Positions 6,527 to 57,923 of a stretch of 64,000 nt of DNA are shown here, piece by piece. The stretch's first letter is position 1. Each line of letters begins with the position of its first letter. Below the pieces are notes generated by a model. The model did no database searches. It saw only the letters and a list, made by a program, of their open reading frames with translations, and was not told the origin of the DNA. The stretch is from Acidimicrobiia bacterium (lineage in GTDB: Bacteria; Actinomycetota; Acidimicrobiia; Spongiisociales; ZC4RG35). The stretch is from NCBI GenBank assembly GCA_050329955.1, contig JBHJOH010000077.1, forward strand, positions 14,455 to 78,454. Reading direction: 5' to 3'. Both the position numbers and the translations under genes were made by a program.

Positions 6527-6581
6527 CAGCAGGGGCCCGTCGAAGAACGCATCGGAGGAATGGTAGGTGCCGCGAAGCGGG

Positions 6582-6640
6582 GCTGCAGCCACCAGCTGCC
6601 AGCTGCCAGCTGCCAGCTCCCAGCTGCCAGCTCCCAGCTC
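6582..6640. repeat. (AGCTGCC/AGCTCCC)n heptamer tandem array, about 8 units, directly after the pccB stop and upstream of pccA
   Basis: Sequence reads ccagctgccagctgccagctgccagctcccagctgccagctcccagctc. Confidence 0.7.
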
Positions 6641-8190: not shown

Positions 8191-8229
8191 CGTGTCTCCT
8201 CCGGGTCGGCCTGTACGATTCCGCACAGT

Positions 8230-9320: not shown

Positions 9321-9324
9321 CTAG

Positions 9325-12778: not shown

Positions 12779-12816
12779 GGGGTGGTCCTCAACCTCTGCC
12801 GGACTCGGACATCGGA

Positions 12817-13524
12817 TCAGAGGAAGAGGTCTTCCTGGGGTGACCGGACCATCGTGACGGCCCCCGCCGTCCCGGGCTTGTATTCGACGCCCCGAACGAT
12901 GGCCACCGGAATCTGCGAGGCCTTTCCCATCACGAGGTCGGCGGCGGCTGCGACCTCGTCGGCGATGGCGACCTCCGAGACCTCGAGCAGTTTGCCGTAC
13001 GCATCGGTGGAACCGCGCAGGTCGGTGATCGGCTCCATGCCGGCAACGCCGATGGCGACATCGGTGAGGCCGCGTCGCCACACCCGACCGAACGTGTCGG
13101 AGACGATCACGGCCACATCCACACCGAGTAGGTGGGACAGCTTGAGCCGGATCCGGTTGGCGGACAGGTCCGGGTCGATGGGCAACAGGATGGCGCGGGC
13201 GTGGCCGGCGTTGGATCGGTCCACGCCGGCATTTGCACAGATGAATCCGTGTCTGGTGCGGGCAATCACCAACGGTCCGCGTCGGCGGATGATGTCGCTC
13301 GCCTCCTGCTCGATCAGGTGGCGGTGGGCGTCTGGCCCGTCATCGTCGAGTTCGACGATGCGGCCTTCCGCCTTCGAGACGATCTTGTGGGTCACCACGA
13401 CGACGTCGCGGTCGGCGAGCGTGATGTCGGCGTGCGCCAGGGCGGCGACGATGACGGTGGCGACGTCGTCGCCCGGCTCCACTTCGCCGATCCCGGTCAC
13501 CGGGGTCACGGTCAGGCCAGCCAC
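12817..13524 (-). CDS. cofE: Coenzyme F420-0:L-glutamate ligase
   Basis: CofE motifs VVTHKIVSKAEGR and ANAGVD. Overlaps the cofD stop by 13 nt (operon). Confidence 0.8.
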   Translation of the reverse strand: MAGLTVTPVTGIGEVEPGDDVATVIVAALAHADITLADRDVVVVTHKIVSKAEGRIVELDDDGPDAHRHLIEQEASDIIRRRGPLVIARTRHGFICANAGVDRSNAGHARAILLPIDPDLSANRIRLKLSHLLGVDVAVIVSDTFGRVWRRGLTDVAIGVAGMEPITDLRGSTDAYGKLLEVSEVAIADEVAAAADLVMGKASQIPVAIVRGVEYKPGTAGAVTMVRSPQEDLFL

Positions 13525-14420
13525 GTGAGAATCTCCTGTGCGAGAGCGGTGGCGGCCTCCGGTTCGGCGATCATCGTGTCGGTGCGGAGTACCGAGACAC
13601 TCGTAGGCGGAGCTGTGGTCTCGGCGGTGTCGATGACGAGATGGCTCACCACGCCGCCGTACGCTTCGACGATGCCGGTGAGGTCATTGGTCAGCCCGAC
13701 GCCGCGCATGGCCTCGGCGGCTGGGCCTTTGATCGCCCGTCCGCTGATGAGGGGGCTGACGGCGACGACGGTCCCGACCGCGCTCACCGCCTCCCCGACT
13801 CCCGGAACGGCGAGTATCGGCCAGATCGAGAGCACCGGGTTGGAGGGGGCGATCACGACGGCGTCGGCGGTGTGGAGGGCATCGAGGACGCCGGGAGCGG
13901 GCCTCGCCTGGTCGGCGCCGGCGAACCTGATGCCGATGACCTCGTCGGCATGGCGTCTCCTCACGAAGTAGGTCTGGAAGTCCAGTTCGCCGTCGGGCGT
14001 GGCGACCATGGTGCGAACGGGGTCATCGGTGGCGGGCAGGACCGGCGTGGAGATCCCGAACCCACTGCAGATGTCTGCGGTGATGTCGCTCAGGCGGTGT
14101 CCCGACGCCAGGCGCCCCGTGCGATACAGATTGACGGCGAGGTCGACGTCACCGAGACGGAACGACGTGTCGGCATCCGGGAACCGGGAGAGTTCGTCCA
14201 TGGCTCGCCACGTCTCCTTGGACCGGCCCCAACCGTGTGGCCCCTGTTCACCGGCGAGGGTGTAGATCACCGTGTCGAGATCGGCCGACACGTGAAGACC
14301 GTGGATGAGATCGTCGTCGCCGGTATTGACGACTACCGTTACCTTCGCCCCGGGGATCGCAGCCAGGCCTCGAGCCATCCGGGCCCCGCCCACACCGCCA
14401 GAGAGCATCACGAGCTGCAT
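13512..14420 (-). CDS. cofD: 2-phospho-L-lactate transferase (F420 biosynthesis)
   Basis: Own translation of the C-terminal 302 aa of the artefactual 1209-aa minus ORF: MQLVMLSGGVGGARMARGL...NTGDD, typical CofD/FbiA. ATG at 14420. Confidence 0.8.
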   Translation of the reverse strand: MQLVMLSGGVGGARMARGLAAIPGAKVTVVVNTGDDDLIHGLHVSADLDTVIYTLAGEQGPHGWGRSKETWRAMDELSRFPDADTSFRLGDVDLAVNLYRTGRLASGHRLSDITADICSGFGISTPVLPATDDPVRTMVATPDGELDFQTYFVRRRHADEVIGIRFAGADQARPAPGVLDALHTADAVVIAPSNPVLSIWPILAVPGVGEAVSAVGTVVAVSPLISGRAIKGPAAEAMRGVGLTNDLTGIVEAYGGVVSHLVIDTAETTAPPTSVSVLRTDTMIAEPEAATALAQEILTWLA

Positions 14421-14444: not shown

Positions 14445-17234
14445 ATGACCGCCTCCACTGAGTTGCCCTCCGGATTGGAAGACGACCTCGATCACACGCC
14501 GACACCGGCGGTGATCGCGGCCGTCCTGTTCGTCGACGAGCGCTCTCTCCCGGTCTCGGTCGAGGCCGTCAAGACGCAAGTCTACGGAGTCGATCGGGTA
14601 GTGGTTCTCGGTGGAGGCTCGGTGGCGGCCGCACTCGCCGCAGCTCGCGGTGCAGACCACATGGCCTCCTACGCCGATTTCGTGAGGTTCCTCGGCGCCG
14701 ATGCCGACTACGTGTGGCTCCTGCATGGTGATGCTCGACCCCGCCCGGACGCACTGGGAGCCCTGGTGACCGAGACCGAGCGCAACGAGGCGTCGCTGGT
14801 TGGTTCCAAGGTGCTCGACGGGGGCGCCCCCGATCGGCTCGAGTCGGTCGGGGCTGCCACTGACGTGTTCGGTGAGCCGTACACGGGACTCGACCCCGAA
14901 GAGGTCGATCTGGAGCAGTACGACGTGGTGCGCGACGTCGCCTTCATCTCCGGTGTCTCGATGCTGGTGCGCCGCGACCTGCTCAAGGGTCTGGGCGGCA
15001 TCGACGAGACCCTGCCGCCGGTGGCGGCCGGTCTCGACTTCTCCCAGCGTGCGCGCATCGCCGGGGGTCGGGTGATGGTGGCACCGTCTTCCGAGGTCCT
15101 GCATCTGAAGATCTGTGGGCAGGAGGGCGCCGGGTGGCGCGAGCAGGCCGGCCGCATGCGGGCGATGATGAAGGCCTACCGCTGGATCACGCTGCTGTGG
15201 GCGATCCCGGCCGGATGGCTGTTGGCCCTGGCAGATGGAGTGCTTCGTCTGTTCCTCGGTTCGACCCGCCCTCTGACGGACCTGATGCGGGCATCCGCCT
15301 GGAATCTGATGCGGTTGCCATCCACCTTGCGCGCCCGGAACGCGGTGCGGGCGGTGCGGGCCACCGGTGACGAGGAGTTGTTTCGCTACCAGGTCTCGGG
15401 CTCGGTGCGTCTCCGTGCGCTCGGCGCCGATCTCGCCTCCCGCTTCGGGTGGATCATCGACCAGGAGCCGGGTGTCGTCACCGAGGAGGAGCTGGAGCGG
15501 GAGCCATCGATCGGGGGACCGGCCGGCCTCGCCGTCGCCGTCCTCATCGTCGGGTTGTCCACCAGATCGTTGTGGTTCGCCCGGCCGGTCGGGTCGGGGT
15601 TCTGGCTTCCGCTGCATTCCGACGCCGCGTCCGTCATCGCCTCGTACTCGGGAGGCTGGAACCCTGCCGGTCTCGGAAGCACCCAGACCCTGCACCCGTC
15701 TGCCGCCGCCGTCTCGGTGGTCCAGTGGCTGCTCGGAGTCTGGACCGGAACGATCAGCCTGATCACAGGCGTGGCCGTGGTCGCCGCGGTGTGGGGCGTG
15801 GCTCGCCTGTTGGCCTCGCTCGGAGTGGCTGGCGCCTCCAAATGGCTGGCGGGCATCGCCTACGTCCTGGGACCCTTCACGGTGGCATTCACCGAAACGG
15901 GCTACTGGCCCGGGTTCGTTGCGCTCGGAGCGTTGCCCTGGCTCGTGGAAGCCGTGATCACGCACGTCGACGGGCACGGGCGCGCCATGTGGGGCAGGGT
16001 AGGGCGCGTCGTCCTGTCCGCAGGTCTGACCGCCTCGTTCGCACCGTTGGCGATCGTGGTGCCGCTCCTGGTTGTGGCGCTGGCAATCCCGATCATGAGC
16101 CGCACCGGCATCCGGGTATCCGCCCTCTGGTGGGCGCTGGTCGGACTGGTGGCCGGAGCCGATGTCGTGGCGCCGTACCTGCTCGGGGTGCCGCCTGCGG
16201 CCCTCACGGCCGACACGGTGGTTTCCGATCCGTGGCCTTCGGTGGTCGTCGGCCTGGCGCTCGTTGCCGCATCGATCTTCACGGTGGTGTTGGCCCCGCC
16301 GGCCCGGGCCCGGGTGGCGGGCTGGGGAGGGGCGATGTTGGGCTTGGCGCTGCTCCTGACGACCGTGCCCGGCGTGACCGGCGAGTTGAGGGTGGCGACG
16401 GTTGCCCTGGCTGCTCTCGGGTCCGCCTTCGTGATCGGTGGAGCCATCAGGGTGGACTTCGACACCAGCGCCCCGGCGGTGGCCGCCCAGACGCTGGGTG
16501 TGCTCGCATCCGTGATCGTGATCGGCGCCTCCCTGCCGCTCGTGTTGGACGGCCGCGCCGGGCTGCCCGATGAAGGCTGGTCCGACCGCCTCGAGTTCGT
16601 GGCGGAGCTCCAATCCGCTTCCGGTCTCGATCGGACCCTGCTGATAGGCCCGGCCGAGGCGCTGCCAGGCGATCACCGCCTGGGGGACGGATACGCCTAT
16701 CGCCTGGTGACGGGAGCCGAACCGACGCTGGACCAGGGTTGGCTCGGGCTGGCACGCATTGGTGATCGGGCGCTCGGGAACACGTTGACAGCGGTGAACG
16801 CAGGTTCCACCGCCCGCCCAGGTGAGTTGCTGGCGGAGTTCGCGGTGCGCTGGGTCGTCGTCGCCGACGGCACTCCCTTGCTCGACGTCCTGGCATCCCA
16901 GGTCGACCTCGCCGAGCGCCAGCGGCTCGAAGGTTGGGCGGTGTACGAGAACCTGGCAGCCCGGCCACGGCTCGAGCACCCCGCCGGAACCTGGGAGGGG
17001 GCGCGGGCCGGCGCCGGCGGCCCCCCCGGGGACGCTCGGATTCGGCTGGCCGACAACGCAGATCCCGGTTGGGGGCCCGACTGGGCGCAATCCGAGTGGG
17101 CGAACGAGCTCTCGGCGTCGGACGGTGCCATCTCGTTCCAACCGGATCCTCTGCGCCGCTGGCTCGCCGTTGCATCGGCGGCGATCCTGGCCGGGTCGGC
17201 TGGGCTGGCGTTCTTCGGGAGGCGACGGGCGTGA
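14445..17234 (+). CDS. GT-A fold (GT2-like) glycosyltransferase domain fused to a ~650-aa polytopic membrane domain
   Basis: N-terminus VIAAVLFVDE...QVYGVDRVVVLGGGS...YVWLLHGDARP matches GT2 topology, with DDGS replaced by GGGS and DxD by HGD. Many hydrophobic helices follow. ATG at 14445 is only 24 bp from the divergent cofD start. ORF 13641..17234 upstream of 14445 is the antisense shadow of cofD. Confidence 0.7.
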   Translation: MTASTELPSGLEDDLDHTPTPAVIAAVLFVDERSLPVSVEAVKTQVYGVDRVVVLGGGSVAAALAAARGADHMASYADFVRFLGADADYVWLLHGDARPRPDALGALVTETERNEASLVGSKVLDGGAPDRLESVGAATDVFGEPYTGLDPEEVDLEQYDVVRDVAFISGVSMLVRRDLLKGLGGIDETLPPVAAGLDFSQRARIAGGRVMVAPSSEVLHLKICGQEGAGWREQAGRMRAMMKAYRWITLLWAIPAGWLLALADGVLRLFLGSTRPLTDLMRASAWNLMRLPSTLRARNAVRAVRATGDEELFRYQVSGSVRLRALGADLASRFGWIIDQEPGVVTEEELEREPSIGGPAGLAVAVLIVGLSTRSLWFARPVGSGFWLPLHSDAASVIASYSGGWNPAGLGSTQTLHPSAAAVSVVQWLLGVWTGTISLITGVAVVAAVWGVARLLASLGVAGASKWLAGIAYVLGPFTVAFTETGYWPGFVALGALPWLVEAVITHVDGHGRAMWGRVGRVVLSAGLTASFAPLAIVVPLLVVALAIPIMSRTGIRVSALWWALVGLVAGADVVAPYLLGVPPAALTADTVVSDPWPSVVVGLALVAASIFTVVLAPPARARVAGWGGAMLGLALLLTTVPGVTGELRVATVALAALGSAFVIGGAIRVDFDTSAPAVAAQTLGVLASVIVIGASLPLVLDGRAGLPDEGWSDRLEFVAELQSASGLDRTLLIGPAEALPGDHRLGDGYAYRLVTGAEPTLDQGWLGLARIGDRALGNTLTAVNAGSTARPGELLAEFAVRWVVVADGTPLLDVLASQVDLAERQRLEGWAVYENLAARPRLEHPAGTWEGARAGAGGPPGDARIRLADNADPGWGPDWAQSEWANELSASDGAISFQPDPLRRWLAVASAAILAGSAGLAFFGRRRA

Positions 17235-18520
17235 TCAGAAGACTCATCCAACTGGCACTGGTGCTGGCGACCATCTCGGGTGCCTGGCTGCTCCGTCCCG
17301 TGCCGACGGAGGCGGGTCTCGACCTCGGTCTCGAGCCGGCGCCGCCGGCATTCGTGGGCTGCATCGGCTGGGTGGATCGCGATCTCGCCTCTTGGGTCCT
17401 GATCGGATCGGTCGTCCGCGGCGATGTGCTCGCCACGCTGGTCGCTCCCGGCGATCCGGCCCAGGTGGTCGTGTCGGTGGACCCGGCAGGGGGAGCCGTC
17501 TTCTCGATGGGCGACGAAATCGGCGCAGCAGGGATCGTCGGGGCACTGGCCGAGATGCCTACCTCAGATGCCGGCGCCACAGTGCTCAGTACGAGGGAGG
17601 CCGCAGCCGCCGCGTCCTCGTGCACCGCTCCTTCCACCGGGACGTTGGTTGCCGTCGGCGGGTCGACCAACACCGGCGAGACCCTGGACCTGGTGCTCAC
17701 CAACCCCTACGCAGCCGATGCCGTCGTCTCCGTCTCCTCCAGCAGCGAAGCCGGGGAAGACTCTGCGACCGAAATCGCTTCGATCCTCGTTCCAGCGCGC
17801 ACGACGGTGGTCCGGGGCCTCGAGACGCTCCTGACACTTCGCCAGTCGCTGTCGGTCCGCATGGAGGTTCAACGGGGTGCGATCCATGGTGCGCTGGTGC
17901 AGGGATCGGAGGGCGATGTCTCGATCATCGAGGCGGTCGAGCCCGCACAGGACTGGTGGGTCCCGTCGCTGCTCGTCGCCGAGGCCACCAGCCGGGTCGT
18001 GATCGCCAACAGTTCGGTGGTTCCAGTTGACATTCTCGTCGACGTCTACGAGGGGGGTACCTTCACCGAGGGCGCATTCGAAGGTGTCGTGGAGGCCAGG
18101 TCCCAACTCGAGATCTCGGTGGATGAGTTCGCGGACGGGCCCGCCGGCTTCCGGGTGAGTTCCGACGGTCCGATCGTTGTCGGGCTGGTGGTTGATGGAG
18201 TCACCTCCAGGGCCGCCACGCCTGGGACCACACTCTCGACCGAGTGGATCCTGGCCGGAAGCGGCTCTCTCGACTCAGCTCGGGCCTGGGTTCTCAATCC
18301 GGGCGAGGTCGAGGCCGAACTCATACTTCAGCCTCTCACTCCGGGGCTGCCGGCTCAAGCGGCCACGGTGCCGGCGGATGCCGTCGTTGCGGTTGTCGTC
18401 GACCCAGGCGGGGCCGGGTATCTGATCCGGTCCACCTCCGAGATCGCCGTGTTCTGGTCCGGACGCCAGGTGGGGTTGGCGCTGGCGACCGGCCACCCCC
18501 TGGCGGGGGTCGCCGAGTGA
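17231..18520 (+). CDS. Membrane-anchored hypothetical protein, Ala/Val/Gly-rich extracytoplasmic domain
   Basis: GTG start overlaps the upstream stop (GTGA). N-terminal TM helix LALVLATISGAWLL. No recognisable catalytic motif. Confidence 0.5.
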   Translation: MIRRLIQLALVLATISGAWLLRPVPTEAGLDLGLEPAPPAFVGCIGWVDRDLASWVLIGSVVRGDVLATLVAPGDPAQVVVSVDPAGGAVFSMGDEIGAAGIVGALAEMPTSDAGATVLSTREAAAAASSCTAPSTGTLVAVGGSTNTGETLDLVLTNPYAADAVVSVSSSSEAGEDSATEIASILVPARTTVVRGLETLLTLRQSLSVRMEVQRGAIHGALVQGSEGDVSIIEAVEPAQDWWVPSLLVAEATSRVVIANSSVVPVDILVDVYEGGTFTEGAFEGVVEARSQLEISVDEFADGPAGFRVSSDGPIVVGLVVDGVTSRAATPGTTLSTEWILAGSGSLDSARAWVLNPGEVEAELILQPLTPGLPAQAATVPADAVVAVVVDPGGAGYLIRSTSEIAVFWSGRQVGLALATGHPLAGVAE

Positions 18521-18524
18521 TCGC

Positions 18525-18893
18525 GTGAACGACCCGCTCTCACGTTTGCTCGTGGTCTTGGCGGTGGTGGGGGTGACGTTGGCCTTCGCCCTGGCCGTCC
18601 GCCGGGGGATGGCGGTGAGACGACGGTCGGTGCAGATCGACCTCCCACACTCCGGCGTCGTGGTGTTCGCCTCGTCGGGATGTGTGACCTGCGCCAGGCT
18701 CGAGGCGGAGTTGTCCCAGGCCGGCATCGCCGACGTGACCGTGCTCGACTGGGATGAGTCGCCCGAGCTGTTCCTCTCGGCCCACATCGACCGGGTGCCA
18801 ACACTCGTGTCACTCGACGCCGGTGGGACGGGATGGATGGTGCAAGGGGTGCCGTCGGCGGCCCGGCTGCGGAAATGGCTCGGAGGTCCTTGA
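18525..18893 (+). CDS. Membrane-anchored thioredoxin/glutaredoxin-fold protein with a CxxC motif
   Basis: TM helix LLVVLAVVGVTLAFALAV, then VVVFASSGCVTCARL and VPTLV. Confidence 0.5.
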   Translation: MNDPLSRLLVVLAVVGVTLAFALAVRRGMAVRRRSVQIDLPHSGVVVFASSGCVTCARLEAELSQAGIADVTVLDWDESPELFLSAHIDRVPTLVSLDAGGTGWMVQGVPSAARLRKWLGGP

Positions 18894-18925
18894 ATGGGCG
18901 ATGGCAGTGCCCTACCGTCTCTGCC

Positions 18926-19159
18926 ATGACCACGACGTGCATACGCTGCTCGACGCCCGCCGCTTCGGTGATGACGTTCGACTATCAGGAGCGATCGGTG
19001 TGGCTCGTCGAGTTCGAGTCACCCCCGGACCTGGGGGCCGGCTACAGCATGTGCACACCGCACGCCGATCGGATGACGCCGCCACTCGGGTGGACGCTCA
19101 CAGATCGCCGCAACGTGACCCGGCTGTTCGCTCCGGCAGCCAGTTCCGGCGTCGCCTGA
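18926..19159 (+). CDS. DUF3499 family small protein (CxxC and FDYxxR...VWL...C..H...PP.GW..DRR)
   Basis: MTTTCIRCSTPAASVMTFDYQERSVWLVEF...MCTPHADRMTPPLGWTLTDRR matches the actinobacterial DUF3499 pattern (cf. Rv3258c next to pmmA). ATG at 18926 chosen over the longer ORF start at 18833. Confidence 0.6.
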   Translation: MTTTCIRCSTPAASVMTFDYQERSVWLVEFESPPDLGAGYSMCTPHADRMTPPLGWTLTDRRNVTRLFAPAASSGVA

Positions 19160-19163
19160 ACCC

Positions 19164-19430
19164 GTGAGTCTCGATCGCGACCTGCTGGACGCGGTGCGGG
19201 AGCTCGACGAACACGGCCTCCGTCGTCTCCTCATCCTCGCCCGGGCCCGGCTCGAGACCACCGGAGTCCCATTGTCCGCCCAGCCCAACGTGCGCCTCCG
19301 TCAACGCGCCGTGAAGTGCGGCAAGAGCGGGTGTGTCTCCTGCCCTCACGGGCCGTACTGGTACGCCTACTGGTCGGAAGGCGGCCGCAGGCGTTCGAGG
19401 TACATCGGCCGCCTGCTCGACGAAGACTGA
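19164..19430 (+). CDS. Small hypothetical protein with C-terminal Cys/His motif (CGKSGCVSCPHGPYWYAYW)
   Basis: 88-aa ORF with GTG start and a compact putative zinc-binding motif. Function unknown. Confidence 0.4.
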   Translation: MSLDRDLLDAVRELDEHGLRRLLILARARLETTGVPLSAQPNVRLRQRAVKCGKSGCVSCPHGPYWYAYWSEGGRRRSRYIGRLLDED

Positions 19431-19550
19431 TCCGCCGGGAGCGGCGACCAGGCCGTCTCCGTCGGTGGTTCTGCGTTCTGCGCCAACCCGATAGAATGCT
19501 GGAGTCGTAGAGGTCGTAGAGCGGGGATCTCAGTCCATGAAGTGTCCACC

Positions 19551-19724
19551 ATGAAGTGTCCACAATGCGGTGCCGGCGACGTCATCGAGATCAAGAACAA
19601 GATCGACGAGATCGAGATCGACTTCTTCTCGTGTCATCGCTGTGAGGAGAAGTGGTGGGACCGCAGTGGCGAGTCGGTGTCGCTCCGCGAGGTTCTCGAC
19701 ATCGTCCGGCGGGCACGGGGCTGA
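19551..19724 (+). CDS. Small zinc-ribbon protein (CPQCG...CHRCEEKWW)
   Basis: 57 aa from ATG 19551. A 13-nt direct duplication atgaagtgtccac at 19538 and 19551 creates an upstream decoy ATG that terminates after 5 codons. Confidence 0.45.
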   Translation: MKCPQCGAGDVIEIKNKIDEIEIDFFSCHRCEEKWWDRSGESVSLREVLDIVRRARG

Positions 19725-19735
19725 CCGGCCCCTCC

Positions 19736-22057
19736 ATGGCGACCGAAAACCGGAAGAGTGTCCGTTCCTGGACGCATGTTCTGATCGCAGCGGCGTCGTC
19801 GCTGGTCGTGCTCACGGTTCTCAACCCGCAGCTGGTGCTCACCGCCACCACCCCGGCGGGTGGCGACATGGGTGCCCACGTGCTCGGCCCTGCCTATCTG
19901 CGTGATGTCCTGCTCCCACAGGGCAAGTTGCTCGGGTGGTCGGACGCCTGGTTCGCCGGGTTCCCCGCCTTCTACTTCTACTTCCCGCTGCCGTCGCTGT
20001 TCATCGTTTTCCTCGACCTGTTCCTGCCGTATGGAGTCGCCTTCAAACTGGCCACGATCCTCGGTCTGATCGGGCTCCCCCCAGCGGTGCTGTATCTGGC
20101 CCGCAGCATCGGGTTCTCCACCACGATTGCCTCGGTGGCATCCGCCGGGTCGGCGGTGTTCGCGTTGATGGAGAGCTACACGATCTACGGCGGCAACGTC
20201 GCCTCGAGCATGGCGGGTGAGTTCGCCTACTCCTGGTCGTTCTCACTCGGGATGGTCTACCTGGGTCTGCTGATCAAGGCGGTGAGAGACGACGCTCGCT
20301 ACGTGCCGTGGGCGGTGGCTGCGCTGGCTGCGACCGTGCTGTCGCACATCCTCACCACGCTCGTGCTGGTGTTCGCATCCTTCACCGTGCTGGCTTGGAA
20401 GGGAACCTTCCGCACCGCCGTCCGCATCTGGGTGTGGGCGTTCGCCATCACCGGGTTCTGGACGGTCCCTCTGCTCGCCCGGATCGGGCTGACCTCGGAC
20501 ATGTCATGGACGCCGCTGAGTCGGTGGGAGGAGGTGTTCCCGCTCGAGTTGTGGATCCTGATGCCGTTCGCCCTGGGCGGGCTCATCTGGGCGATGCTGC
20601 GCCATCCCCGAAGCCTTCCGGTGGTGGCCGCCATGCTCGTTCCGATCATCTACTACCCGCTCCCGGGGATTCTCCCGTCCTTCATCGAGTCGTTGGAAGG
20701 CGAGCGGTGGAAGCTCTGGAACGGTCGGCTGCTTCCCTATTGGTACTTCGGGGTCATCTTCTTCGCCTCGATCGGGATCGGGAGGTTGCTGGTGGCGGCA
20801 ACCCGACGGATGCCGGACCGGATCTCGGGTTGGTGGGCGCGTGCCGCCGGTGTGGCTGCCGCCGGTGGTCTCGGGTGGCTGCTGGTGTTCCGGGAGGGCC
20901 CGGTGTGGTCCGGGTGGGCGTTGGCGGGTCTTGGAGTGGTGGTGGCGGCGCTGTCGCTCACCTGGATGGCCCCGATTCCCACCAGGGCGTTCATGGCGGT
21001 GACGGTGGCGGCACTGCTGGCGTTCGGCTCGCTGGCGGGGACCAACTTCATCTTCAAGTGGTCGCGATGGAACTACTCGGGCTACGAGGCGAAGACGGCG
21101 TGGCCCGAGTACCAGGGGGTGATGGCGCAGATGGCGCAACTACCCCCCGGGCGGGTCATGTGGGAGCAGGACTCCACGTCGAGCACGGGGCTCGACAAGT
21201 ACGGCACCCCGATGGCGCCGATGTTGTTCCCCTACTGGACCGACTGGACGCATCCCTCGATGGAGGGCTTGTTCTTCGAGTCTTCGCTGTCCACTCCGTT
21301 CCACTTCCTCAACGCCACCGAGATGAGCGCCAAGCCGTCATCTCCGATTCCGGGACTCGAGTATCACCCGTTCGATTTCGATCGGGGGCTGCCGCACCTC
21401 GAGACGTTCGGTGTGCGCTACTACGTCTCGTATTCCACCGACGCCGCCGCCAAGGCGGACGACCGGCCCGAATTGACCAAGGTGGCCGACGCCGCCCCGT
21501 TCGCCATCTACGAGCTGTCCGAGGTGAACCAGGTGGAGGCCCTCACGCTGCTGCCGTCGGTGTTCGCAACCGCCGAGCAGCCACTCGAAGACGACCCCGG
21601 CAACTTCGATGACTTCGCCCTCGATTGGTATGGCGAGCTGGATGCGCTCGACCACATCGCGGTGACGGATGGGCTGGCATCGTGGGACACGGTGTCCCGG
21701 GTCTCGGACATGGTCGATGTCCCCACCGGCGCCGACTCCACGGCGGTATCGGACGTGGTGATGGGCGACCATGTCATCACGTTCCGCACCACGGCCGTCG
21801 GGGTACCGCACCTTGTGAAGGTCTCGTACTTTCCGAACTGGACGGTGGAGGGAGCCGACGGTCCCTTCCATTCCACACCTTCGCTGATGGTGGTGGTGCC
21901 GACGAAGGAGGAGGTCACGTTGCGGTTCCAGAACAGTTGGGCGGAGAACACCGGCAATGTCCTCACCCTCGTCGGGATCGGAGGGCTGGGGTGGGTGGCC
22001 ATCGACCGGCGTCGCAAGCGTGGCGCCGAGCCGCTCAGCTCCGAAGCGCCCGCCTGA
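19736..22057 (+). CDS. Polytopic membrane protein with C-terminal extracytoplasmic domain, GT-C-like putative lipid-linked-sugar glycosyltransferase
   Basis: 773 aa from MATENRK. About 12 predicted TM helices with aromatic-rich loops (FPAFYFYFPLPSLF, LFPYWTDWTHPS), then a ~280-aa soluble domain. Convergent with, and overlapping by 23 nt, the polyprenyl-phosphate sugar synthase gene. Confidence 0.65.
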   Translation: MATENRKSVRSWTHVLIAAASSLVVLTVLNPQLVLTATTPAGGDMGAHVLGPAYLRDVLLPQGKLLGWSDAWFAGFPAFYFYFPLPSLFIVFLDLFLPYGVAFKLATILGLIGLPPAVLYLARSIGFSTTIASVASAGSAVFALMESYTIYGGNVASSMAGEFAYSWSFSLGMVYLGLLIKAVRDDARYVPWAVAALAATVLSHILTTLVLVFASFTVLAWKGTFRTAVRIWVWAFAITGFWTVPLLARIGLTSDMSWTPLSRWEEVFPLELWILMPFALGGLIWAMLRHPRSLPVVAAMLVPIIYYPLPGILPSFIESLEGERWKLWNGRLLPYWYFGVIFFASIGIGRLLVAATRRMPDRISGWWARAAGVAAAGGLGWLLVFREGPVWSGWALAGLGVVVAALSLTWMAPIPTRAFMAVTVAALLAFGSLAGTNFIFKWSRWNYSGYEAKTAWPEYQGVMAQMAQLPPGRVMWEQDSTSSTGLDKYGTPMAPMLFPYWTDWTHPSMEGLFFESSLSTPFHFLNATEMSAKPSSPIPGLEYHPFDFDRGLPHLETFGVRYYVSYSTDAAAKADDRPELTKVADAAPFAIYELSEVNQVEALTLLPSVFATAEQPLEDDPGNFDDFALDWYGELDALDHIAVTDGLASWDTVSRVSDMVDVPTGADSTAVSDVVMGDHVITFRTTAVGVPHLVKVSYFPNWTVEGADGPFHSTPSLMVVVPTKEEVTLRFQNSWAENTGNVLTLVGIGGLGWVAIDRRRKRGAEPLSSEAPA

Positions 22058-22778
22058 TCGCCAGCAGGCCCTTGATCGTGCGCGGAACGCGCTTGAGCAG
22101 GGATGAGCGGGCGGGGCGGAGCTCCTCGACGATCACGGGCACTTCCGTGATGCGGGCCCCCGCCCGCTCCATCCGGACCACCAATTCGGTGTCGTAGAGG
22201 TCCTTGCGGCTCACGACGTCCAAAGCATGCAGACGTGCCGCCGCAGCCCGGAAGGCCTTGATGCCGTGGGTATCGGAGACCCTCGACCCCAGGATGGTTC
22301 GAAGCAACAGGTTGAACCCAAAGGTGGCGAACCGTCGGAACGCCGAGCGCCGGTCCTCGGACCGTGGATCGCGCTTTGATGCGATCACCACATCGGCCGA
22401 GGAGGTCAGCGATGACAGATCCTCCAGGAACTGGGCCGAGAAGTAGTCGATGTCGAAGGTGACCACCCAGTCGCCGGTGGCGACGAGGATCCCTTCCCTC
22501 ATCGCCCCGCCGTAGTCGGGCGTGGGCAGCTCGTGGATCTGCACGGAGTCCCCGGCGGCGAGACGGGCAGCCGCCGCCGTCCCGTCGGTGGAGCCGTTCT
22601 CCATGATGAGGATCTCGGCACCCGGATACACCGAGTGGGCGGCCTCGATCAGGCGCGGCAATCCCACCGGTATGAATGCCGCCTCGTTGTGGACGGGGAC
22701 GACGATTGAGACCTCGGGCGGTTGCGTTGGCATGGGAGCGGAAGTGTAGGAAGCGGTTCGGGCGAGCAAGGCTCCCAC
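22035..22778 (-). CDS. GT2 family polyprenyl-phosphate sugar synthase-like glycosyltransferase (DPM1/Ppm-like)
   Basis: VSIVVPVHNE...MENGSTDGT...TFDIDY motifs. Alternative start at 22733 (MPTQPPEVSIVVP). Confidence 0.75.
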   Translation of the reverse strand: MGALLARTASYTSAPMPTQPPEVSIVVPVHNEAAFIPVGLPRLIEAAHSVYPGAEILIMENGSTDGTAAAARLAAGDSVQIHELPTPDYGGAMREGILVATGDWVVTFDIDYFSAQFLEDLSSLTSSADVVIASKRDPRSEDRRSAFRRFATFGFNLLLRTILGSRVSDTHGIKAFRAAAARLHALDVVSRKDLYDTELVVRMERAGARITEVPVIVEELRPARSSLLKRVPRTIKGLLAIRRALRS

Positions 22779-22837
22779 TCCTCAAGGAACCGTCAACGTC
22801 GGCCGATGGTTTCCTTTCGAGAGGCCTTTCCGAAGGG

Positions 22838-24082
22838 ATGGAAGTGATCAGGAACGCTCACCTCGTCGCGCTCGCGCTGCTGTTGGCCGCCTGTACCGAG
22901 TCGGGATCCACCGACTCCACCGGAGGCGACGCCGCGGCTGCGACGACGACCACCACTGTCGCAACCACGACCAGCACCACCATGGCGCCGACTGATATGA
23001 CGGCGGCCACATGTACCGCGCTCAAGGTGGCGCTGTTCGATCTGGACGAATCGCTGGGGCAGGCATTCGCCGACCCCGAGGGGGTGGACGGCCTCAGCGA
23101 CGAGGAGGCGGCGGTGGCCTTCCTGTCGCCGCTCGTCAACTTCTACGAGGAGCTGGCGGCCATCTCGGAGACGGCGCCGTCAGAGGTGGCGGGGCCCCTG
23201 GGAGGACTCTCGGAGTCGGTTCAGCCGTTGGCCGACATCCTGGCGTCCGGCGACCTGGCGGGCCTCGACCTGGAGGGGACGGGATCGCCGCTCGAGCTGA
23301 CCAGTGAGTACTCCGTCGAGGTGGATGCCTGGGCAGCCGAGAACTGCGGCACCTCTACCTCCTTCGACCCTGAGCAGCTGCTCACCACCACCCTGTTCAC
23401 CGCCGCCTTCGGTGCCCTGGGCGGGGCCCTCGGCGAGTTGGGCGGGAGCCTGGGCGAACTGGGGGAGGGAGTGGATGGCCTGGGCGGGACGAGCTCGGGT
23501 GAGGTCTACGGCGACGACCCCGAGCTGGACGCCCTTTGGGACGCTTGCGAGGAAGGTGACGACGTGGCCTGCGATGACCTGTACTGGTCGACCTTCGGCG
23601 TGTACGAGGCGTTCGCCCAGACCTGTGGAGGACGGGCGCCCTACAACCCGAACGGGGGAGGCTCGTGCGAGGAGCGGATGGTGTCGGATGGGCCCATGGC
23701 CTACGGCGACGACCCCAATCTCGACACGCTGTGGGACGCCTGCGAAGCAGGGGACACCTTCTCCTGTGACAGCCTGTCGGGGTCGGCACCGGTGGCCAGC
23801 GAGTACGCCACATTCGGGGCCACGTGTGGCGGCGCCTCCGAGAACGACACGCCCAAGTCGTGTTCAGATCCCGATCAGGCCTTCACCTACGGTGATGATG
23901 CCGAGCTCGATGCGCTCTGGGACGCCTGCGAGCAAGGGGATGCGGGCGCCTGCAGCGACCTGTTCTTCGAGTCCCCGCTGTCATCGGGATACGAGACCTT
24001 CGGAGACACCTGTGAGACCCTGCTCGGGCGTGACCAGGACTGCACACTCATGGTCGAGCTGCTGAAACCGGTGCGAGGATGA
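22838..24082 (+). CDS. Lipoprotein with three ~60-aa Cys-rich repeats (YGDDPxLDxLWDACExGDxxxCDxL...TCGG)
   Basis: Lipobox LVALALLLAAC, Thr-rich linker, then repeats at about aa 230, 290 and 350, each with 4 Cys. No family I recognise. Confidence 0.7.
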   Translation: MEVIRNAHLVALALLLAACTESGSTDSTGGDAAAATTTTTVATTTSTTMAPTDMTAATCTALKVALFDLDESLGQAFADPEGVDGLSDEEAAVAFLSPLVNFYEELAAISETAPSEVAGPLGGLSESVQPLADILASGDLAGLDLEGTGSPLELTSEYSVEVDAWAAENCGTSTSFDPEQLLTTTLFTAAFGALGGALGELGGSLGELGEGVDGLGGTSSGEVYGDDPELDALWDACEEGDDVACDDLYWSTFGVYEAFAQTCGGRAPYNPNGGGSCEERMVSDGPMAYGDDPNLDTLWDACEAGDTFSCDSLSGSAPVASEYATFGATCGGASENDTPKSCSDPDQAFTYGDDAELDALWDACEQGDAGACSDLFFESPLSSGYETFGDTCETLLGRDQDCTLMVELLKPVRG

Positions 24083-25479
24083 GCTCAACCGAGGCGGCTG
24101 TGTCGGGTGGCGGCCAGGGTGCGTACAATCGTCCCATGGCGCTAGACACGGTCTTCAAGGCGTATGACATTCGCGGGCGCACCGACACCGGCGAGCTCAC
24201 CCCCGAACTCGCCTGGGGAGTCGGTGCCGGCTTCGCTCGCCTGGTCGGTGGGGAAACCATCACCGTGGGACGTGATTGCCGCGCATCGTCGCCCGCCATC
24301 GCCGGTGCGCTCATCGACGGCATCACCTCGATGGGCGTCGACGTCATCGACCTGGGAGAGGTCGCCACCGACACCGTGTACTACGTGTCGGGGGTGCGCT
24401 CGATCGCCGGGGCGATGGTCACCGCCTCCCACAATCCGGCGGAGTACAACGGCATCAAGCTGTGCAAGGCCGGTGCCGCCCCGGTAGGGGTGGAGACCGG
24501 CCTGGCCGACATCAAGGCCATGATCGAAGCAGGCATCGAGCCGGGCCCCGGTGAAGGCACCGTCACCCGCTTCGATCCGGTGCCCGGCTACGTCGACCAT
24601 CTCTTCTCGGTGGTGGATGCCTCGAAGATCGCCGACCTGCGGGTGGCGGTGGACGGTGGCAACGGGATGGCCGGTGTCGTGCTCGAAGGGGTGTTCGACC
24701 GGCTCGGTGCCGAGCTGATCGGCCTCTATCTGGAACCTGACGGAACCTTCCCGAATCATCCGGCTGATCCGCTGCAGCCTGAGAACCTCGAGGACCTGGT
24801 GGCGCTGATCGGTCGCGACAAGCCCGATCTGGGTGTGGCCTTCGATGGGGACGCAGACCGGGCATTCTTCGTGGACGACACCGGGTCGCCGGTGTCGGGC
24901 AGCACCACCACCGCCCTCGTGGCCCGCTGGTTCCTCGATCGGGAGCCGGGGGCCACCATCGTGCACAACCTGATCACGTCGCGGGCCGTTGCCGAGACCG
25001 TGCGCGCCCACGGTGGGGTCCCGGTTCGGACCAGGGTGGGACACTCCTACATCAAGAAGGTGATGGCCGACACCGGTGCCATCTTCGGAGGCGAGCACTC
25101 GGGCCATTACTACTTCCGGGCCAACTTCCGGGCCGACTCCGGCATGCTGGCGATGCTCGTGCTGCTCCAGGTGCTCTCGGAGTCCGGGAAAAAACTGTCG
25201 GAGCTGCGAACCGAGGTGGAGCCGTATTCGGCCTCCGGGGAGATCAACCTGTCGGTGTCGGATCCTGCTGCGGTGTTCGCCGCCGTGGAGCAAGCCTTCG
25301 GTGACGCCGAGATCGATCGTCTCGACGGTTTGACGGTCGGGTGGCCGGACCGATGGTTCAACCTGCGGGCATCCAACACCGAGCCGCTGATCCGGCTCAA
25401 CGTCGAGGCTCCCGACCGGGACGGGGTCGAGGAACTGGTGGCCCGGGTGCGTGAGGTCGCTGAAGGAACGTCGGCATGA
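24079..25479 (+). CDS. manB: Phosphomannomutase/phosphoglucomutase (alpha-D-phosphohexomutase)
   Basis: Active-site TASHNPAEYNGIKL, metal-binding FDGDADR, sugar-binding GGEHSGH. ATGA overlap with the upstream stop. Confidence 0.85.
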   Translation: MSSTEAAVSGGGQGAYNRPMALDTVFKAYDIRGRTDTGELTPELAWGVGAGFARLVGGETITVGRDCRASSPAIAGALIDGITSMGVDVIDLGEVATDTVYYVSGVRSIAGAMVTASHNPAEYNGIKLCKAGAAPVGVETGLADIKAMIEAGIEPGPGEGTVTRFDPVPGYVDHLFSVVDASKIADLRVAVDGGNGMAGVVLEGVFDRLGAELIGLYLEPDGTFPNHPADPLQPENLEDLVALIGRDKPDLGVAFDGDADRAFFVDDTGSPVSGSTTTALVARWFLDREPGATIVHNLITSRAVAETVRAHGGVPVRTRVGHSYIKKVMADTGAIFGGEHSGHYYFRANFRADSGMLAMLVLLQVLSESGKKLSELRTEVEPYSASGEINLSVSDPAAVFAAVEQAFGDAEIDRLDGLTVGWPDRWFNLRASNTEPLIRLNVEAPDRDGVEELVARVREVAEGTSA

Positions 25480-25630
25480 GCGTCGTCTCGCCGATCCTGC
25501 TGGAGATCCTTCGCTGTCCGAGGTGCATGGCGCCCCTCACCGGCGACGAGGCGACCTCGGAGCTGGTCTGCCAGGAGCAGGGACATCGCTACCCGGTGGT
25601 CGACGGGATCCCCGACATGGTCGTCGACTG
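25475..25630 (+). CDS. Trm112 family small protein (DUF343)
   Basis: Own translation: MSVVSPILLEILRCPRCMAPLTGDEATSELVCQEQGHRYPVVDGIPDMVVD, 51 aa. ATGA overlap with the manB stop. Absent from the ORF track (below the length cut-off). Confidence 0.6.
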
Positions 25631-25705
25631 AGCAGCCGCACCCAACCGACCCTTCCATCGAAGTCCACCAAGAACTCCAGGCAACTCCAGAGAAACGGAT
25701 TCACC

Positions 25706-26953
25706 ATGAACTACGACATCGCCACGCCCACCCTCTCCGAGCAGGGCAGCCAACGCCTCGTGTGGGCGGGTCGGCGGATGCAGGTCCTATCGACCATCCG
25801 CGAGCGTTTCCGCGCCGAGCGCCCCCTCGAGGGCAAGACCATCGCCGCCTGCCTCCATGTCACGGCCGAGACCGCCAACCTCATGCTGGCGCTGCGCGAT
25901 GCCGGTGCCCGTCCGATCCTGTGCGCCTCCAACCCACTGTCGACCCAGGACGACGTCGCCGCAGCACTGGTGGCCGAGGGGATCTCGGTGTTCGCCATCC
26001 GTGGCGAGGACAACACCAGCTACTACCAGCACCTCAACGCGGCCCTCGACATGGAACCCGACATCACCATGGACGACGGTGCCGACCTGGCGACGTTGCT
26101 GCACACCTCGCGCACCGACATCACCCCGCTCGGCTCCACCGAGGAGACCACCACCGGCGTGATTCGGCTGCGGGCGATGTTCGAGGAGGGCAAGCTCCGT
26201 CTGCCGGTTGTGGCCGTGAACGACTCCCAGACCAAACATCTCTTCGACAACAAGTACGGAACCGGCCAGTCGGCGATCGACGGCATCATCCGGGCCTCCA
26301 ACGTCCTGATAGCCGGCCTCACCGTGGTGGTGGTCGGGTACGGGAACTGCGGACAGGGCGTTGCCAACCGGGCGGACGGGCTCGGCGCCAAGGTCGTGGT
26401 GGTCGAGGTCGACCCGGTGCGGGCGCTGGCTGCCGCCATGGATGGGTACCGGGTGCTCACCGCTGATGACGCCGCCCGCATCGGCGACATCTTCCTCACG
26501 GTCACGGGCAACAAGCATGTGCTGCGCCAGCGGCACTTCGAAGTCATGAAGGACAGCGTGATCATCGCCAACGCCGGCCACTTCGACATCGAGCTCGATC
26601 TGGTAGCCCTGGGCGAGATGGCGCACGAGCGTCGCCAGGTCCGTGCCAACCTCGAGGAGTACCACCTCGCCGATGGTCGCCGCATCCTCGTGGCCGCCGA
26701 GGGACGGCTGGTCAACCTGGGAGCGGCCGAGGGCCATCCGGCCGACGTGATGGACATGTCGTTCTCGAACCAGGCTCTCGCCGCCGAGTGGCTCGTCGCC
26801 AACGAGGGCCGTCTCGAACCGGGCATCTACACCCTGGCCGACGAGATCGACCGTCACGTCGCCACCATCAAGCTGGAAGCACTGGGCGGCGGCCTCGAGA
26901 AGCTCACCCCTGAGCAGGAGGCCTATCTGTCAGGGTGGCAGGAAGGAACCTGA
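25706..26953 (+). CDS. ahcY: Adenosylhomocysteinase
   Basis: 415 aa from MNYDIATPTLSEQG. NAD motif GYGNCGQGVA and SAHH signatures (DDGADL, HFDIE). Confidence 0.9.
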   Translation: MNYDIATPTLSEQGSQRLVWAGRRMQVLSTIRERFRAERPLEGKTIAACLHVTAETANLMLALRDAGARPILCASNPLSTQDDVAAALVAEGISVFAIRGEDNTSYYQHLNAALDMEPDITMDDGADLATLLHTSRTDITPLGSTEETTTGVIRLRAMFEEGKLRLPVVAVNDSQTKHLFDNKYGTGQSAIDGIIRASNVLIAGLTVVVVGYGNCGQGVANRADGLGAKVVVVEVDPVRALAAAMDGYRVLTADDAARIGDIFLTVTGNKHVLRQRHFEVMKDSVIIANAGHFDIELDLVALGEMAHERRQVRANLEEYHLADGRRILVAAEGRLVNLGAAEGHPADVMDMSFSNQALAAEWLVANEGRLEPGIYTLADEIDRHVATIKLEALGGGLEKLTPEQEAYLSGWQEGT

Positions 26954-26956
26954 GAG

Positions 26957-27022
26957 AGCAGCTGCTAGCTGCTGGCTTCTTGCTTCTTGCTTCTAGCCAG
27001 TAGCCAGTAGCCAGTAGCCAGC
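26957..27022. repeat. Heptamer tandem array (CAGCTGC, TAGCTGC, CTTCTTG x3, CCAGTAG x4) starting 4 nt after the ahcY stop
   Basis: Read directly. Confidence 0.7.
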
Positions 27023-27057
27023 TCCTTTTTGTCACCCCCCTCCGATACGTTCCGGCG

Positions 27058-27657: not shown

Positions 27658-27695
27658 TTCAAAGAGGGTCCCTCCGGGGGGAAAGCTGAGGACAC

Positions 27696-37674: not shown

Positions 37675-37678
37675 CAAC

Positions 37679-57828: not shown

Positions 57829-57923
57829 TAGTGACTTTCCGGCCCGACCGGCGTCTGTTCGCCGCTGGTGGCGGCGTCATGCCTACGGAGCCGCTTCGGC
57901 GAAGTCGGGCCGCATATTCACAG

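Follow-up and report, generated by a model that had tools for sequence, protein, structure and literature searches.

A predicted GT-C glycosyltransferase linked to a polyprenyl-phosphate sugar synthase and a phosphomannomutase at a conserved chromosomal site in Acidimicrobiia

In the genome of an uncultured Acidimicrobiia bacterium, we identified three neighbouring genes, for a membrane glycosyltransferase of predicted GT-C fold, a small family 2 glycosyltransferase (GT2) and a manB-type phosphomannomutase (PMM), that probably form an extracytoplasmic glycosylation system of the GtrB/GtrA/GT-C "three-component" type, with mannose as the most likely sugar. We give this reading, in which a second set of membrane glycosyltransferase genes close by is a separate module, a probability of about 0.65. 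The genes lie in an 11-kb stretch of contig JBHJOH010000077.1 (assembly GCA_050329955.1); the window referred to below is the whole piece of DNA analysed, 64,000 nucleotides long (positions 14,455 to 78,454 of the contig, forward strand), with its own numbering. A first-pass annotation of the window had described a single glycan-assembly locus here. The neighbourhood is indeed a conserved one, but it resolves into two separable modules, A and B, on a conserved backbone, and one pathway running through both is not demonstrable.

Results

A GT-C-fold enzyme from an uncharacterised family

Genes were called by codon-position G+C content (GC3) and annotated by Pfam and NCBIfam profile scans. The three genes assigned to module B are the following.

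19736 to 22057, plus strand: membrane glycosyltransferase of predicted GT-C fold, 773 amino acids (aa) (AlphaFold2 (AF2) model and Foldseek)
22035 to 22778, minus strand: small GT2, polyprenyl-phosphate sugar synthase type (PF00535, E 1.2e-14)
24079 to 25479, plus strand: manB/pmmA-type phosphomannomutase/phosphoglucomutase, the supply gene (four PGM_PMM domains; NF007088 563 bits, just under the 618-bit cut-off)

The window copy of the 773-aa protein has no Pfam or NCBIfam match, and a 28-sequence profile of the family found nothing at E <= 10 among all Protein Data Bank (PDB) sequences. Its 90 % cluster is annotated "hypothetical protein". The AF2 model built on the same 28-sequence alignment (predicted local distance difference test (pLDDT) 73.7, predicted template modelling score 0.75) has about 15 transmembrane (TM) helices; residues 448-734 form a periplasmic domain of alpha/beta plus beta-sandwich type, and the final TM helix spans 735-763. 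When this model was compared with the PDB using Foldseek, the top 14 matches were all GT-C enzymes (AftA, DPY19, PglB, yeast and human STT3, AglB) at E 1e-4 to 3e-3 and probability 0.98-1.00, and the next were unrelated transporters at a probability of at most 0.1. These matches assign the model to a fold; none of them is close.

Relatives of the protein lead to the same superfamily. An HMMER scan of 1.84 billion representatives returned 3755 representative clusters of the family, 1272 of them at E < 1e-30. Among 36 diverse representatives with 30-54 % identity to the window protein, 15 match PF10131 ("PTPS_related"). The homologues P0248 and P0322 score 38.5 and 41.1 bits, with a cut-off of 26.4 bits. 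The window protein and its Acidimicrobiia orthologues gave no PF10131 match at E <= 0.01 while these homologues do match, which makes them a divergent sister group rather than scored members. PF10131 belongs to the Pfam clan GT-C and its function is unknown (PMC7801869); the literature we found mentions it only in these terms. Judged by its predicted structure and these relatives, the 773-aa protein is a GT-C superfamily enzyme from an uncharacterised family remotely related to PF10131, as the GT-C-like call of the first-pass annotation had anticipated.

The residues that the family keeps fit this assignment. The predicted first outer loop carries the motif GGD44MGAH48, in which D44 is conserved at 100 % in alignment A1 and at 97 % in the diverse alignment A3, and H48 at 100 %. 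Across the diverse family, at about 30 % identity, D44, H48, K104, E162, H204 and R331 are all 94-100 % conserved. This would be the pattern expected of an active GT-C, with an outer-loop carboxylate and basic residues for the donor phosphate: D44 is the probable catalytic residue, and K104, H204 and R331 probably bind the phosphate.

A convergent gene for a polyprenyl-phosphate sugar synthase

The small GT2 is a soluble or monotopic protein of 247 aa, without TM helices, whose true start is possibly the Met codon at 22733. It matches PF00535 at 55 bits (cut-off 23.3 bits). Its best partial matches in NCBIfam are all polyprenyl-phosphate glycosyltransferases (ArnC, a haloarchaeal dolichyl-phosphate hexose transferase, AglJ and PpgS), and its best relative in the PDB is ArnC (E 2e-10). 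The motifs ENGS, DID (the DxD motif, D109-I-D111) and VSDTHGmKaFR are conserved in 66 orthologues from the related loci described below, and the last of these resembles what we take to be the DPM1 signature. These motifs and matches identify the protein as a predicted DPM1/ArnC/GtrB-like polyprenyl-phosphate sugar synthase with an intact DxD. It is convergent with the GT-C gene and the two 3' ends overlap by 23 bp (22035-22057), as the first-pass annotation had it. This close spacing is itself conserved: about half of the 60 convergent loci have a spacing of -37 to +20 bp. Separate terminators do not fit into so little space, which implies that the two transcripts overlap in antisense.

Conserved linkage in Acidimicrobiia and in distant relatives

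A scan of a genome collection yielded 80 loci, all from Acidimicrobiia or from Actinomycetota metagenome-assembled genomes, in which the window proteins were searched with tblastn and their positions parsed. Presence is given below for all 80 loci, and adjacency only for those with enough flank (68 downstream and 51 upstream of the GT-C gene):

convergent small GT2 directly downstream of GT-C: 60 of 68 loci
manB at most 3.5 kb downstream of GT-C: 68 of 68
DUF3499 upstream of GT-C: 50 of 51
large GT2 of the 929-aa type (module A) upstream of GT-C: 47 of 51
DUF5719 upstream of GT-C: 47 of 51
zinc ribbon upstream of GT-C: 46 of 51
DUF6788-like upstream of GT-C: 46 of 51

The arrangement recurs in 80 of the 80 related genome loci, far beyond chance. 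One locus, L035, has at the same overlapping position a diverged 244-aa GT2 with a canonical DDGS motif. Five OM1-type loci carry thioredoxin, DUF3499, GT-C, manB and sahH and neither of the two GT2 genes, from which we conclude that the link between GT-C and manB is the tightest and that modules A and B are separable.

The site is also kept on contigs whose GT-C representatives are only 30-36 % identical to the window protein. The order GT-C, manB, Trm112 is found in L081, L082, L084, L085 and L086, followed in L084, L085 and L086 by a SIS/PGI_C isomerase gene; the fullest of these loci, L082, reads large GT2, DUF5719, thioredoxin, (FtsH), DUF3499, GT-C, a GtrA_TM::GT2 gene, PMM, Trm112 and SIS/PGI_C. 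Conservation of the locus in related genomes, expected from the first-pass annotation, thus extends from Acidimicrobiia to distant relatives; the neighbourhood is genuine, an actinobacterial region for envelope sugars whose conservation runs deep.

Two distant loci place the genes elsewhere. In L083 (GCA_965185425.1, CBCYSC010000073.1, 1229-11702), the trio of PMM, GT-C and a convergent 245-aa GT2 stands in a different neighbourhood, beside two YkuD L,D-transpeptidases, which hints at a peptidoglycan-proximal role. The GT-C of this trio is a PF10131 protein, and the same locus holds a GT4/DUF3492 gene and a 1058-aa protein without a Pfam match. In L087 (ena:ERZ25070917 ctg124330, 6001-8319), a 772-aa GT-C homologue, with a small GT2 nearby, lies amid Replic_Relax, DnaB, SSB, T2SSF, DUF2442 and DUF4160 genes. 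This setting looks like a mobile element or prophage and is reminiscent of phage-borne gtr seroconversion modules.

Gene fusions join the GT-C protein to its proposed partners

Fusions were sought among the 150 best representatives of the GT-C family. A domain like the small GT2 follows the GT-C part in P0340 (6 members), P0300 (7 members, Ca. Poriferisodalis), P0250 and P0275, and a GT2 precedes it in P0344. Two further clusters, P0303 and P0386, with 6 members each, have a complete phosphomannomutase fused behind the GT-C part. Several of the fusion clusters have multiple members on different contigs, including contigs from Ca. Poriferisodalis and "Acidimicrobiales". In L081, at the orthologous position (6001-9591) and followed by PMM and Trm112, P0322 is one intact open reading frame (ORF) of 1196 aa that reads GT-C::GtrA_DPMS_TM::GT2, and in L082 the separate GtrA_TM::GT2 gene directly follows the GT-C gene.

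The first-pass annotation had paired a polyprenyl-phosphate sugar synthase with a GT-C transferase, and the fusions strengthen that pairing beyond the adjacency noted above. Wherever an enzyme is fused at the C-terminus, a basic linker joins the last TM helix to this cytoplasmic enzyme, and in P0344 the GT2 precedes TM1; these layouts indicate an N-in/C-in topology for the GT-C protein, with its large domain outside. Since the partners are covalently fused in other lineages, docking on the GT-C protein is probable in the window too, for the soluble synthase and perhaps for the mutase. The GT-C::synthase and GT-C::mutase fusions suggest substrate channelling.

A proposed pathway and the sugar it would carry

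In the pathway that we propose, ManB/PMM would make a hexose-1-phosphate, most likely mannose-1-phosphate, which a ManC encoded elsewhere would convert into GDP-mannose. The 247-aa DPM1/ArnC-like GT2, probably docked on the GT-C protein, would then move the sugar onto polyprenyl phosphate at the cytoplasmic face of the membrane. After the lipid-linked sugar is flipped, in some lineages presumably by the GtrA domain, the 773-aa GT-C would pass it to an extracytoplasmic acceptor. A polyprenyl-phosphate-linked donor is probable for this enzyme in view of its adjacent or fused polyprenyl-phosphate GT2.

Mannose is favoured because of what surrounds the equivalent gene in other Actinomycetota. In C. 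glutamicum, cg0853 (DUF3499) is the first gene of the pmmA-manA operon, a GDP-mannose operon (PMC7775120), and in M. tuberculosis ManB, ManC and ManA are encoded in the equivalent region. We also count for mannose a SIS/bact-PGI_C gene (335-350 aa, phosphoglucose/phosphomannose isomerase type) that lies between Trm112 and sahH in most relatives (e.g. L003, 14583-15590). This gene is missing in the window, where 74 nt separate Trm112 from sahH (25631-25706), as well as in L001 and a few other loci.

Several observations weigh against the proposal. On the side of the sugar, neither ManC nor ManA is encoded in the window, a UDP-glucose dehydrogenase gene lies 7 kb upstream, and the small GT2 scores far below every NCBIfam equivalog cut-off, so that its sugar specificity cannot be read from sequence. 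Enzymes of the manB type are, moreover, often bifunctional as phosphomannomutase and phosphoglucomutase, which leaves room for glucose. On the side of the machinery, Pfam and NCBIfam scans recognised no flippase of the GtrA, SMR or Wzx type in the window locus, the three-in-one fusion P0322 is a singleton cluster, and the OM1-type loci (L064, L068, L069, L071 and L076) have GT-C and manB without an adjacent GT2. The structural model of the 773-aa protein is only moderate, with pLDDT < 50 in the loops that hold D44 and the conserved motif at 442-451, and its TM-scores to solved GT-Cs are modest (0.31-0.38). The family is unstudied, and none of its members has been characterised by experiment.

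Module A, a second, predicted membrane glycosyltransferase set

Upstream of the GT-C gene lie three genes that we assign to module A.

14445 to 17234, plus strand: GT2-like plus polytopic protein, 929 aa (sub-cut-off Pfam GT2 match, AF2 model, Foldseek)
17231 to 18520, plus strand: DUF5719 protein with an N-terminal anchor (PF18986, E 8.1e-16, above cut-off)
18525 to 18893, plus strand: membrane-anchored thioredoxin-like protein with a CxxC motif (CVTC), probable member of the module (weak Thioredoxin_2 match, E 2.4e-4)

The 929-aa protein is modelled (pLDDT 82.4) as a divergent cytoplasmic GT-A/GT2 domain (aa ~20-230), interface and TM helices, an AftD-like polytopic domain (aa ~357-725) and a periplasmic alpha/beta plus beta-sandwich domain, followed by a TM helix at 902-924. 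Pfam GT2 families narrowly miss the window copy, at E ~1e-5 and 26.3 bits where the cut-off is 27 bits; among its homologues, PF13641 matches 25 of 26. Foldseek relates the GT-A part to ppGalNAc-T2, GlfT2, RmlT and TarP (E 7e-8 to 2e-6), and also to hyaluronan synthase (HAS). AftD (6wby) matches the model at E 1.8e-7 over 592 columns, a match that concerns the polytopic and periplasmic part only, because AftD is without a GT-A domain. The polytopic domain of about 650 aa, which the first-pass annotation had left unassigned, thus itself appears GT-C-like on the model.

The polytopic domain has no Pfam match, the whole-protein profile gave only chance matches in the PDB and the GT-A domain alone gave none at E <= 1, and a profile-profile comparison with the 773-aa family returned a 21-column TM match only, with no detectable paralogy. 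In the first outer loop of its polytopic part no acidic residue is conserved, only R374 and H417. We found no further example, among solved or named proteins, of a GT-C-like domain preceded by a fused GT-A domain.

The first-pass annotation had pointed to GGGS and HGD in place of the usual GT-A motifs and had called the domain possibly divergent or inactive. Both motifs are there, at aa 56-59 and aa 94-96. In the family, positions 56-59 are variable, HGD stands for DxD, and the position of the ED base is A195-G196, followed by an invariant D198. The domain is divergent in that the usual first Asp motif and the ED base are absent, but inactivity is not favoured: besides H94, D96 and H220 there are about 60 invariant positions (among the invariants K122, D140, D150, E153, D155, D160, D198 and E217), which speaks against a decayed domain. 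Such strong apparent purifying selection argues for function.

The DUF5719 gene is translationally coupled to the 929-aa gene, as proposed in the first-pass annotation: its GTG start overlaps the upstream TGA stop as GTGA. DUF5719 adjoins the large GT2 in 47 of the 51 loci and also in the distant L082 and L085; we found no papers on it in the literature. The thioredoxin-like gene is detectable by tblastn in 46 of 80 loci, follows DUF5719 in L082 and is present in L081. From this conservation, the GT-A::GT-C-like protein, DUF5719 and the thioredoxin-like protein would form a membrane glycosyltransferase complex that is separate from module B and equally conserved.

Neighbouring genes and the chromosomal backbone

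The remaining genes of the locus are listed here.

10178 to 11482, plus strand: LytR-CpsA-Psr (LCP) glycopolymer-to-peptidoglycan transferase (PF03816, E 1.4e-38, LytR_C; TIGR00350 above cut-off)
11513 to 12778, plus strand: nucleotide-sugar dehydrogenase, most like UDP-glucose 6-dehydrogenase (TuaD/AglM) (three UDPG_MGDP_dh domains; TIGR03026 415 bits, above cut-off; TuaD model E 1.8e-110)
12817 to 13524, minus strand: cofE, F420-0:gamma-glutamyl ligase, a backbone gene outside the glycan module (PF01996, E 1.7e-61; TIGR01916 above cut-off)
13512 to 14420, minus strand: cofD, 2-phospho-L-lactate transferase, a backbone gene (PF01933, E 2.3e-44; TIGR01819 273 bits, above cut-off; ATG start from sequence)
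18926 to 19159, plus strand: DUF3499 small Cys protein (PF12005, E 1.9e-7, above cut-off)
19164 to 19430, plus strand: small CxxxxCxxC protein, weakly DUF6788-like (PF20586, E 2.3e-3, below cut-off)
19551 to 19724, plus strand: zinc-ribbon protein of 57 aa, CPQC...CHRC (weak TFS/Lar-type ribbon matches)
22838 to 24082, plus strand: Cys-repeat lipoprotein (LLAAC lipobox, three Cys-rich repeats)
25476 to 25631, plus strand: Trm112-like zinc-ribbon protein (PF03966, E 4.1e-13)

Gene calls and profile scans reproduced in full the gene order of the first-pass annotation, from the LCP and dehydrogenase genes through cofE-cofD on the opposite strand onward, with each gene at its coordinates and with all four small Cys-motif proteins, DUF3499 among them. 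The G+C content of the window is 64-70 %. The 11-kb stretch sits on an ancient actinobacterial backbone of LCP ... cofE-cofD ... DUF3499-manB-Trm112 ... sahH ... secA. In this backbone the LCP gene is a conserved upstream neighbour, seen in 34 of 80 loci, with short flanks keeping this number down. Downstream of Trm112, Pfam and NCBIfam identify sahH, a ribosome hibernation factor, a response regulator, secA, prfB, ftsE/X and an M23 peptidase. The absence of whiB2, noted earlier, also held, in that a regular-expression scan for WhiB-type Cys motifs gave out-of-frame noise only.

Among the small proteins, DUF3499, whose gene is the conserved first one of the actinobacterial pmmA/manA operon, occurs in 74 of 80 loci as well as in L081 and L082, the DUF6788-like gene in 68 of 80 and the 57-aa zinc-ribbon gene in 69 of 80. 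A similar ribbon ORF precedes the GT-C gene in L085. L081, L084, L085 and L086 have a gene for an Rce1-like (CPBP) intramembrane protease, often with FtsH, between DUF5719/thioredoxin and GT-C, the position taken in the window by the DUF6788-like and zinc-ribbon genes. Trm112 is coupled to manB by an ATGA overlap; its place after manB is kept in 54 of 80 loci and throughout the distant ones.

The first-pass annotation had closed the locus with the Cys-repeat lipoprotein and the manB-trm112 pair. All of these are present, but the lipoprotein is outside the conserved unit. It has a Thr-rich linker after its lipobox and three repeats of about 55 aa around YGDDPxLDxLWDACExGD..CD.L, and matches no Pfam or NCBIfam family. 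Its gene is inserted behind the small GT2 gene and in front of manB, which it overlaps by ATGA, and it was found only in L001, a 91 % identical relative (1 of 80 loci). We therefore rejected it as a conserved acceptor or component and regard it as a lineage-specific insert.

An Rfam scan found no RNA element within the locus. Elsewhere in the window there is a tmRNA gene at 37319-37677 (tag AEDNFALAA), and six clustered tRNA genes (Leu, Lys, Pro, Gly, Arg, His) at 57923-61829; a second, permuted ARAGORN "tmRNA*" call at 37584-38312 is without Rfam support and probably false. The adenosylhomocysteinase of the window (25706-26953) is the short, 415-aa form, and L081 has a 480-aa form at the same position (12398-13840). 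The 740 bp between sahH and the ribosome hibernation factor gene (26953-27696) contain, on both strands, no ORF with convincing codon-position G+C or a Pfam match.

Discussion

The combination of fold prediction, gene fusions and comparative genomics points to module B as a glycosylation system working across the membrane. Several other explanations of the same genes have to be considered.

It is conceivable, if doubtful, that the whole region encodes one integrated wall-polymer pathway, in which the 929-aa GT2 and DUF5719 polymerise and export a glycan, the GT-C and the small GT2 mannosylate it outside, the dehydrogenase supplies uronic acid and LCP ligates the product to peptidoglycan. In Acidimicrobiia these parts are collinear and conserved together: the large GT2 and DUF5719 are kept in the proportions given above, LCP and the dehydrogenase wherever the flank allows. 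L082 and L085 also have the large GT2-DUF5719 pair upstream of GT-C, and the GT-A part resembles wall-polymer GT2s and synthases (GlfT2, RmlT, TarP, HAS). However, the OM1-type loci, L083, L084 and L086 keep GT-C and manB without a large GT2 nearby, unrelated genes are interspersed (cofD/cofE, and FtsH in distant loci), and profile scans found no priming phosphoglycosyltransferase or exporter in the window. In addition, judged by published locus tags, Mycobacterium has the same backbone order with different glycosyltransferases, so the collinearity may be inherited synteny.

A second possibility concerns the acceptor and is a sub-case of the three-component reading. The GT-C would here be a protein glycosyltransferase, an analogue of actinobacterial Pmt or streptococcal PgtC that uses polyprenyl-phosphate-mannose for O-glycosylation of secreted or membrane proteins. 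Its top structural matches include the peptide-modifying GT-Cs DPY19, PglB, STT3 and AglB, and an invariant WxxWNYxGYE motif (W442-E451) stands directly after the last core TM helix, which we take to be the position of the peptide-binding WWDYG motif of oligosaccharyltransferases. Protein glycosylation by a GtrB and a GT-C is known in streptococci (PMC12041528). The top Foldseek match, however, is AftA, a glycan-modifying GT-C, and the 773-aa protein matches none of the Pfam families PMT (PF02366), PMT_2 (PF13231) and STT3 (PF02516), Pmt structures appearing in Foldseek only at E > 0.1. The motif at the equivalent position is not WWDYG and its region is modelled at pLDDT < 50. No acceptor candidate is conserved in the locus either, the sole Ser/Thr-rich lipoprotein being lineage-specific. 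We consider this acceptor unlikely.

Much less probable still is an oligosaccharyltransferase- or ligase-like GT-C that transfers a preassembled polyprenyl-diphosphate glycan en bloc, with the GT2 and manB as mere precursor-supply neighbours. PglB, STT3 and AglB do stand near the top of the structural matches, their alignments covering 620-740 columns and taking in the periplasmic domain, and the family has the WNYxGYE motif, but there is no PDB or Pfam sequence similarity to STT3, and we rejected this candidate because the partner GT2, with its ArnC/DPM1-like motifs, is of the monosaccharide polyprenyl-monophosphate type. In some lineages this partner is fused to the GT-C together with a GtrA domain, a signature of single-sugar three-component systems (PMC11127046). 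It is equally hard to credit that GT-C, GT2 and manB are neighbours through regional synteny in Actinomycetota alone, as members of a conserved 30-kb backbone (acc genes ... secA, prfB, ftsEX) that also holds functionally unrelated genes, when the GT-C has been fused independently to GT2, in both orders, and to PMM in several multi-member clusters and when the trio was relocated together in L083.

Beyond the three-component reading itself, one can speculate on its history. Module B might be an ancestral envelope-mannosylating machine of deep-branching Actinomycetota, a physically coupled complex at a fixed DUF3499-manB site in which synthase and PMM dock on the N-in/C-in GT-C as the natural fusions suggest, perhaps flippase-free in Acidimicrobiia. 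Mycobacterium and related lineages would have lost it or put enzymes of the Ppm1/Pmt/Mpt type in its place. The GT-A::GT-C-like protein, together with DUF5719 and thioredoxin, would in parallel be a new type of membrane glycan synthase. We regard this scenario as tentative and rather improbable.

Acidimicrobiia abound in soil, marine and sponge habitats. Their cell envelope is almost unknown, and the locus gives a concrete, testable entry point to it. The lead is solid, even if the mechanism is not a surprising one. The GT-C family is near-universal and comprises at least 3755 clusters at 50 % identity, all annotated "hypothetical", for which fusions and synteny make a donor pathway predictable. 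Its characterisation would establish a new GT-C family of the CAZy type and reveal what a major envelope glycoconjugate of Acidimicrobiia is. It would also show the DUF3499-manB region of Actinomycetota, studied only in Corynebacteriales, as it was before the mycobacterial-type wall evolved. The fusions that suggest substrate channelling could be exploited for structural work.

Compared with known enzymes, the 929-aa protein of module A is like the arabinofuranosyltransferases AftD and AftA in its membrane part and like GlfT2, RmlT, TarP and HAS in its N-terminal part (GT-A matches at E ~1e-7), a likeness of predicted structure. It differs from all of them in having no sequence similarity to solved proteins, no conserved acidic residue in the first loop, HGD for DxD and AG for the ED base.

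Module B shares its predicted logic, from PMM through GDP-mannose and a DPM1-like synthase to a GT-C, with the mycobacterial polyprenyl-phosphate-mannose pathway (ManB Rv3257c, ManC Rv3264c, Ppm1 Rv2051c, Pmt, MptA/B, PimE), and it appears to lie in the same chromosomal neighbourhood (DUF3499-pmmA, fbiA/B, LCP). For M. tuberculosis we take fbiA and fbiB to be Rv3261 and Rv3262, whiB2 to be Rv3260c and DUF3499 to be Rv3258c. Published locus tags place Lcp1 at Rv3267, WbbL at Rv3265c, ManC at Rv3264c, ManB at Rv3257c and ManA at Rv3255c (papers including PMC3229680). Compared by locus-tag numbers and these positions of fbiA/B, whiB2 and DUF3499 rather than by sequence, the window is consistent with collinearity to Rv3255c-Rv3267, as well as with the DUF3499-pmmA-manA order of C. 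glutamicum. In Mycobacterium, unlike here, neither the synthase nor the GT-Cs are encoded in this region, and the GT-Cs are of other families (GT39, GT87), whereas in Acidimicrobiia both lie between DUF3499 and manB. Ppm1, like the small GT2, is a soluble catalytic domain, and it needs a membrane partner (PMC3229680).

The closest parallel is with three-component periplasmic glycosylation systems, whose published definition (PMC11127046) is matched by the proposed module B: GtrA/GtrB/Gtr-type GT-C, CsbB-GtcA-YfhO, ArnC-ArnE/F-ArnT and the M. tuberculosis pair PpgS (Rv3631)-Rv3779. In these, as proposed here, a GT2 at the cytoplasmic face charges polyprenyl phosphate and a GT-C transfers the sugar outside, and the genes are adjacent. 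A GtrA-type TM domain is likewise found in the distant orthologous loci, fused in L081 and on the GT2 in L082. Unlike those systems, the window has a GT-C from an unstudied family without a Pfam match, whose PF10131 relatives share the GGD...H outer-loop motif while the window protein itself scores below the model; a 247-aa synthase that has no TM helices and is not close to any named synthase model; and no flippase gene in the locus. Module B also occupies a fixed ancestral chromosomal position, in contrast to three-component systems in variable serotype or phage loci. The kind of system is therefore already known, whereas the 773-aa GT-C family itself has never been studied, and the tight link to a phosphomannomutase, at times as a fusion with the GT-C, is unusual.

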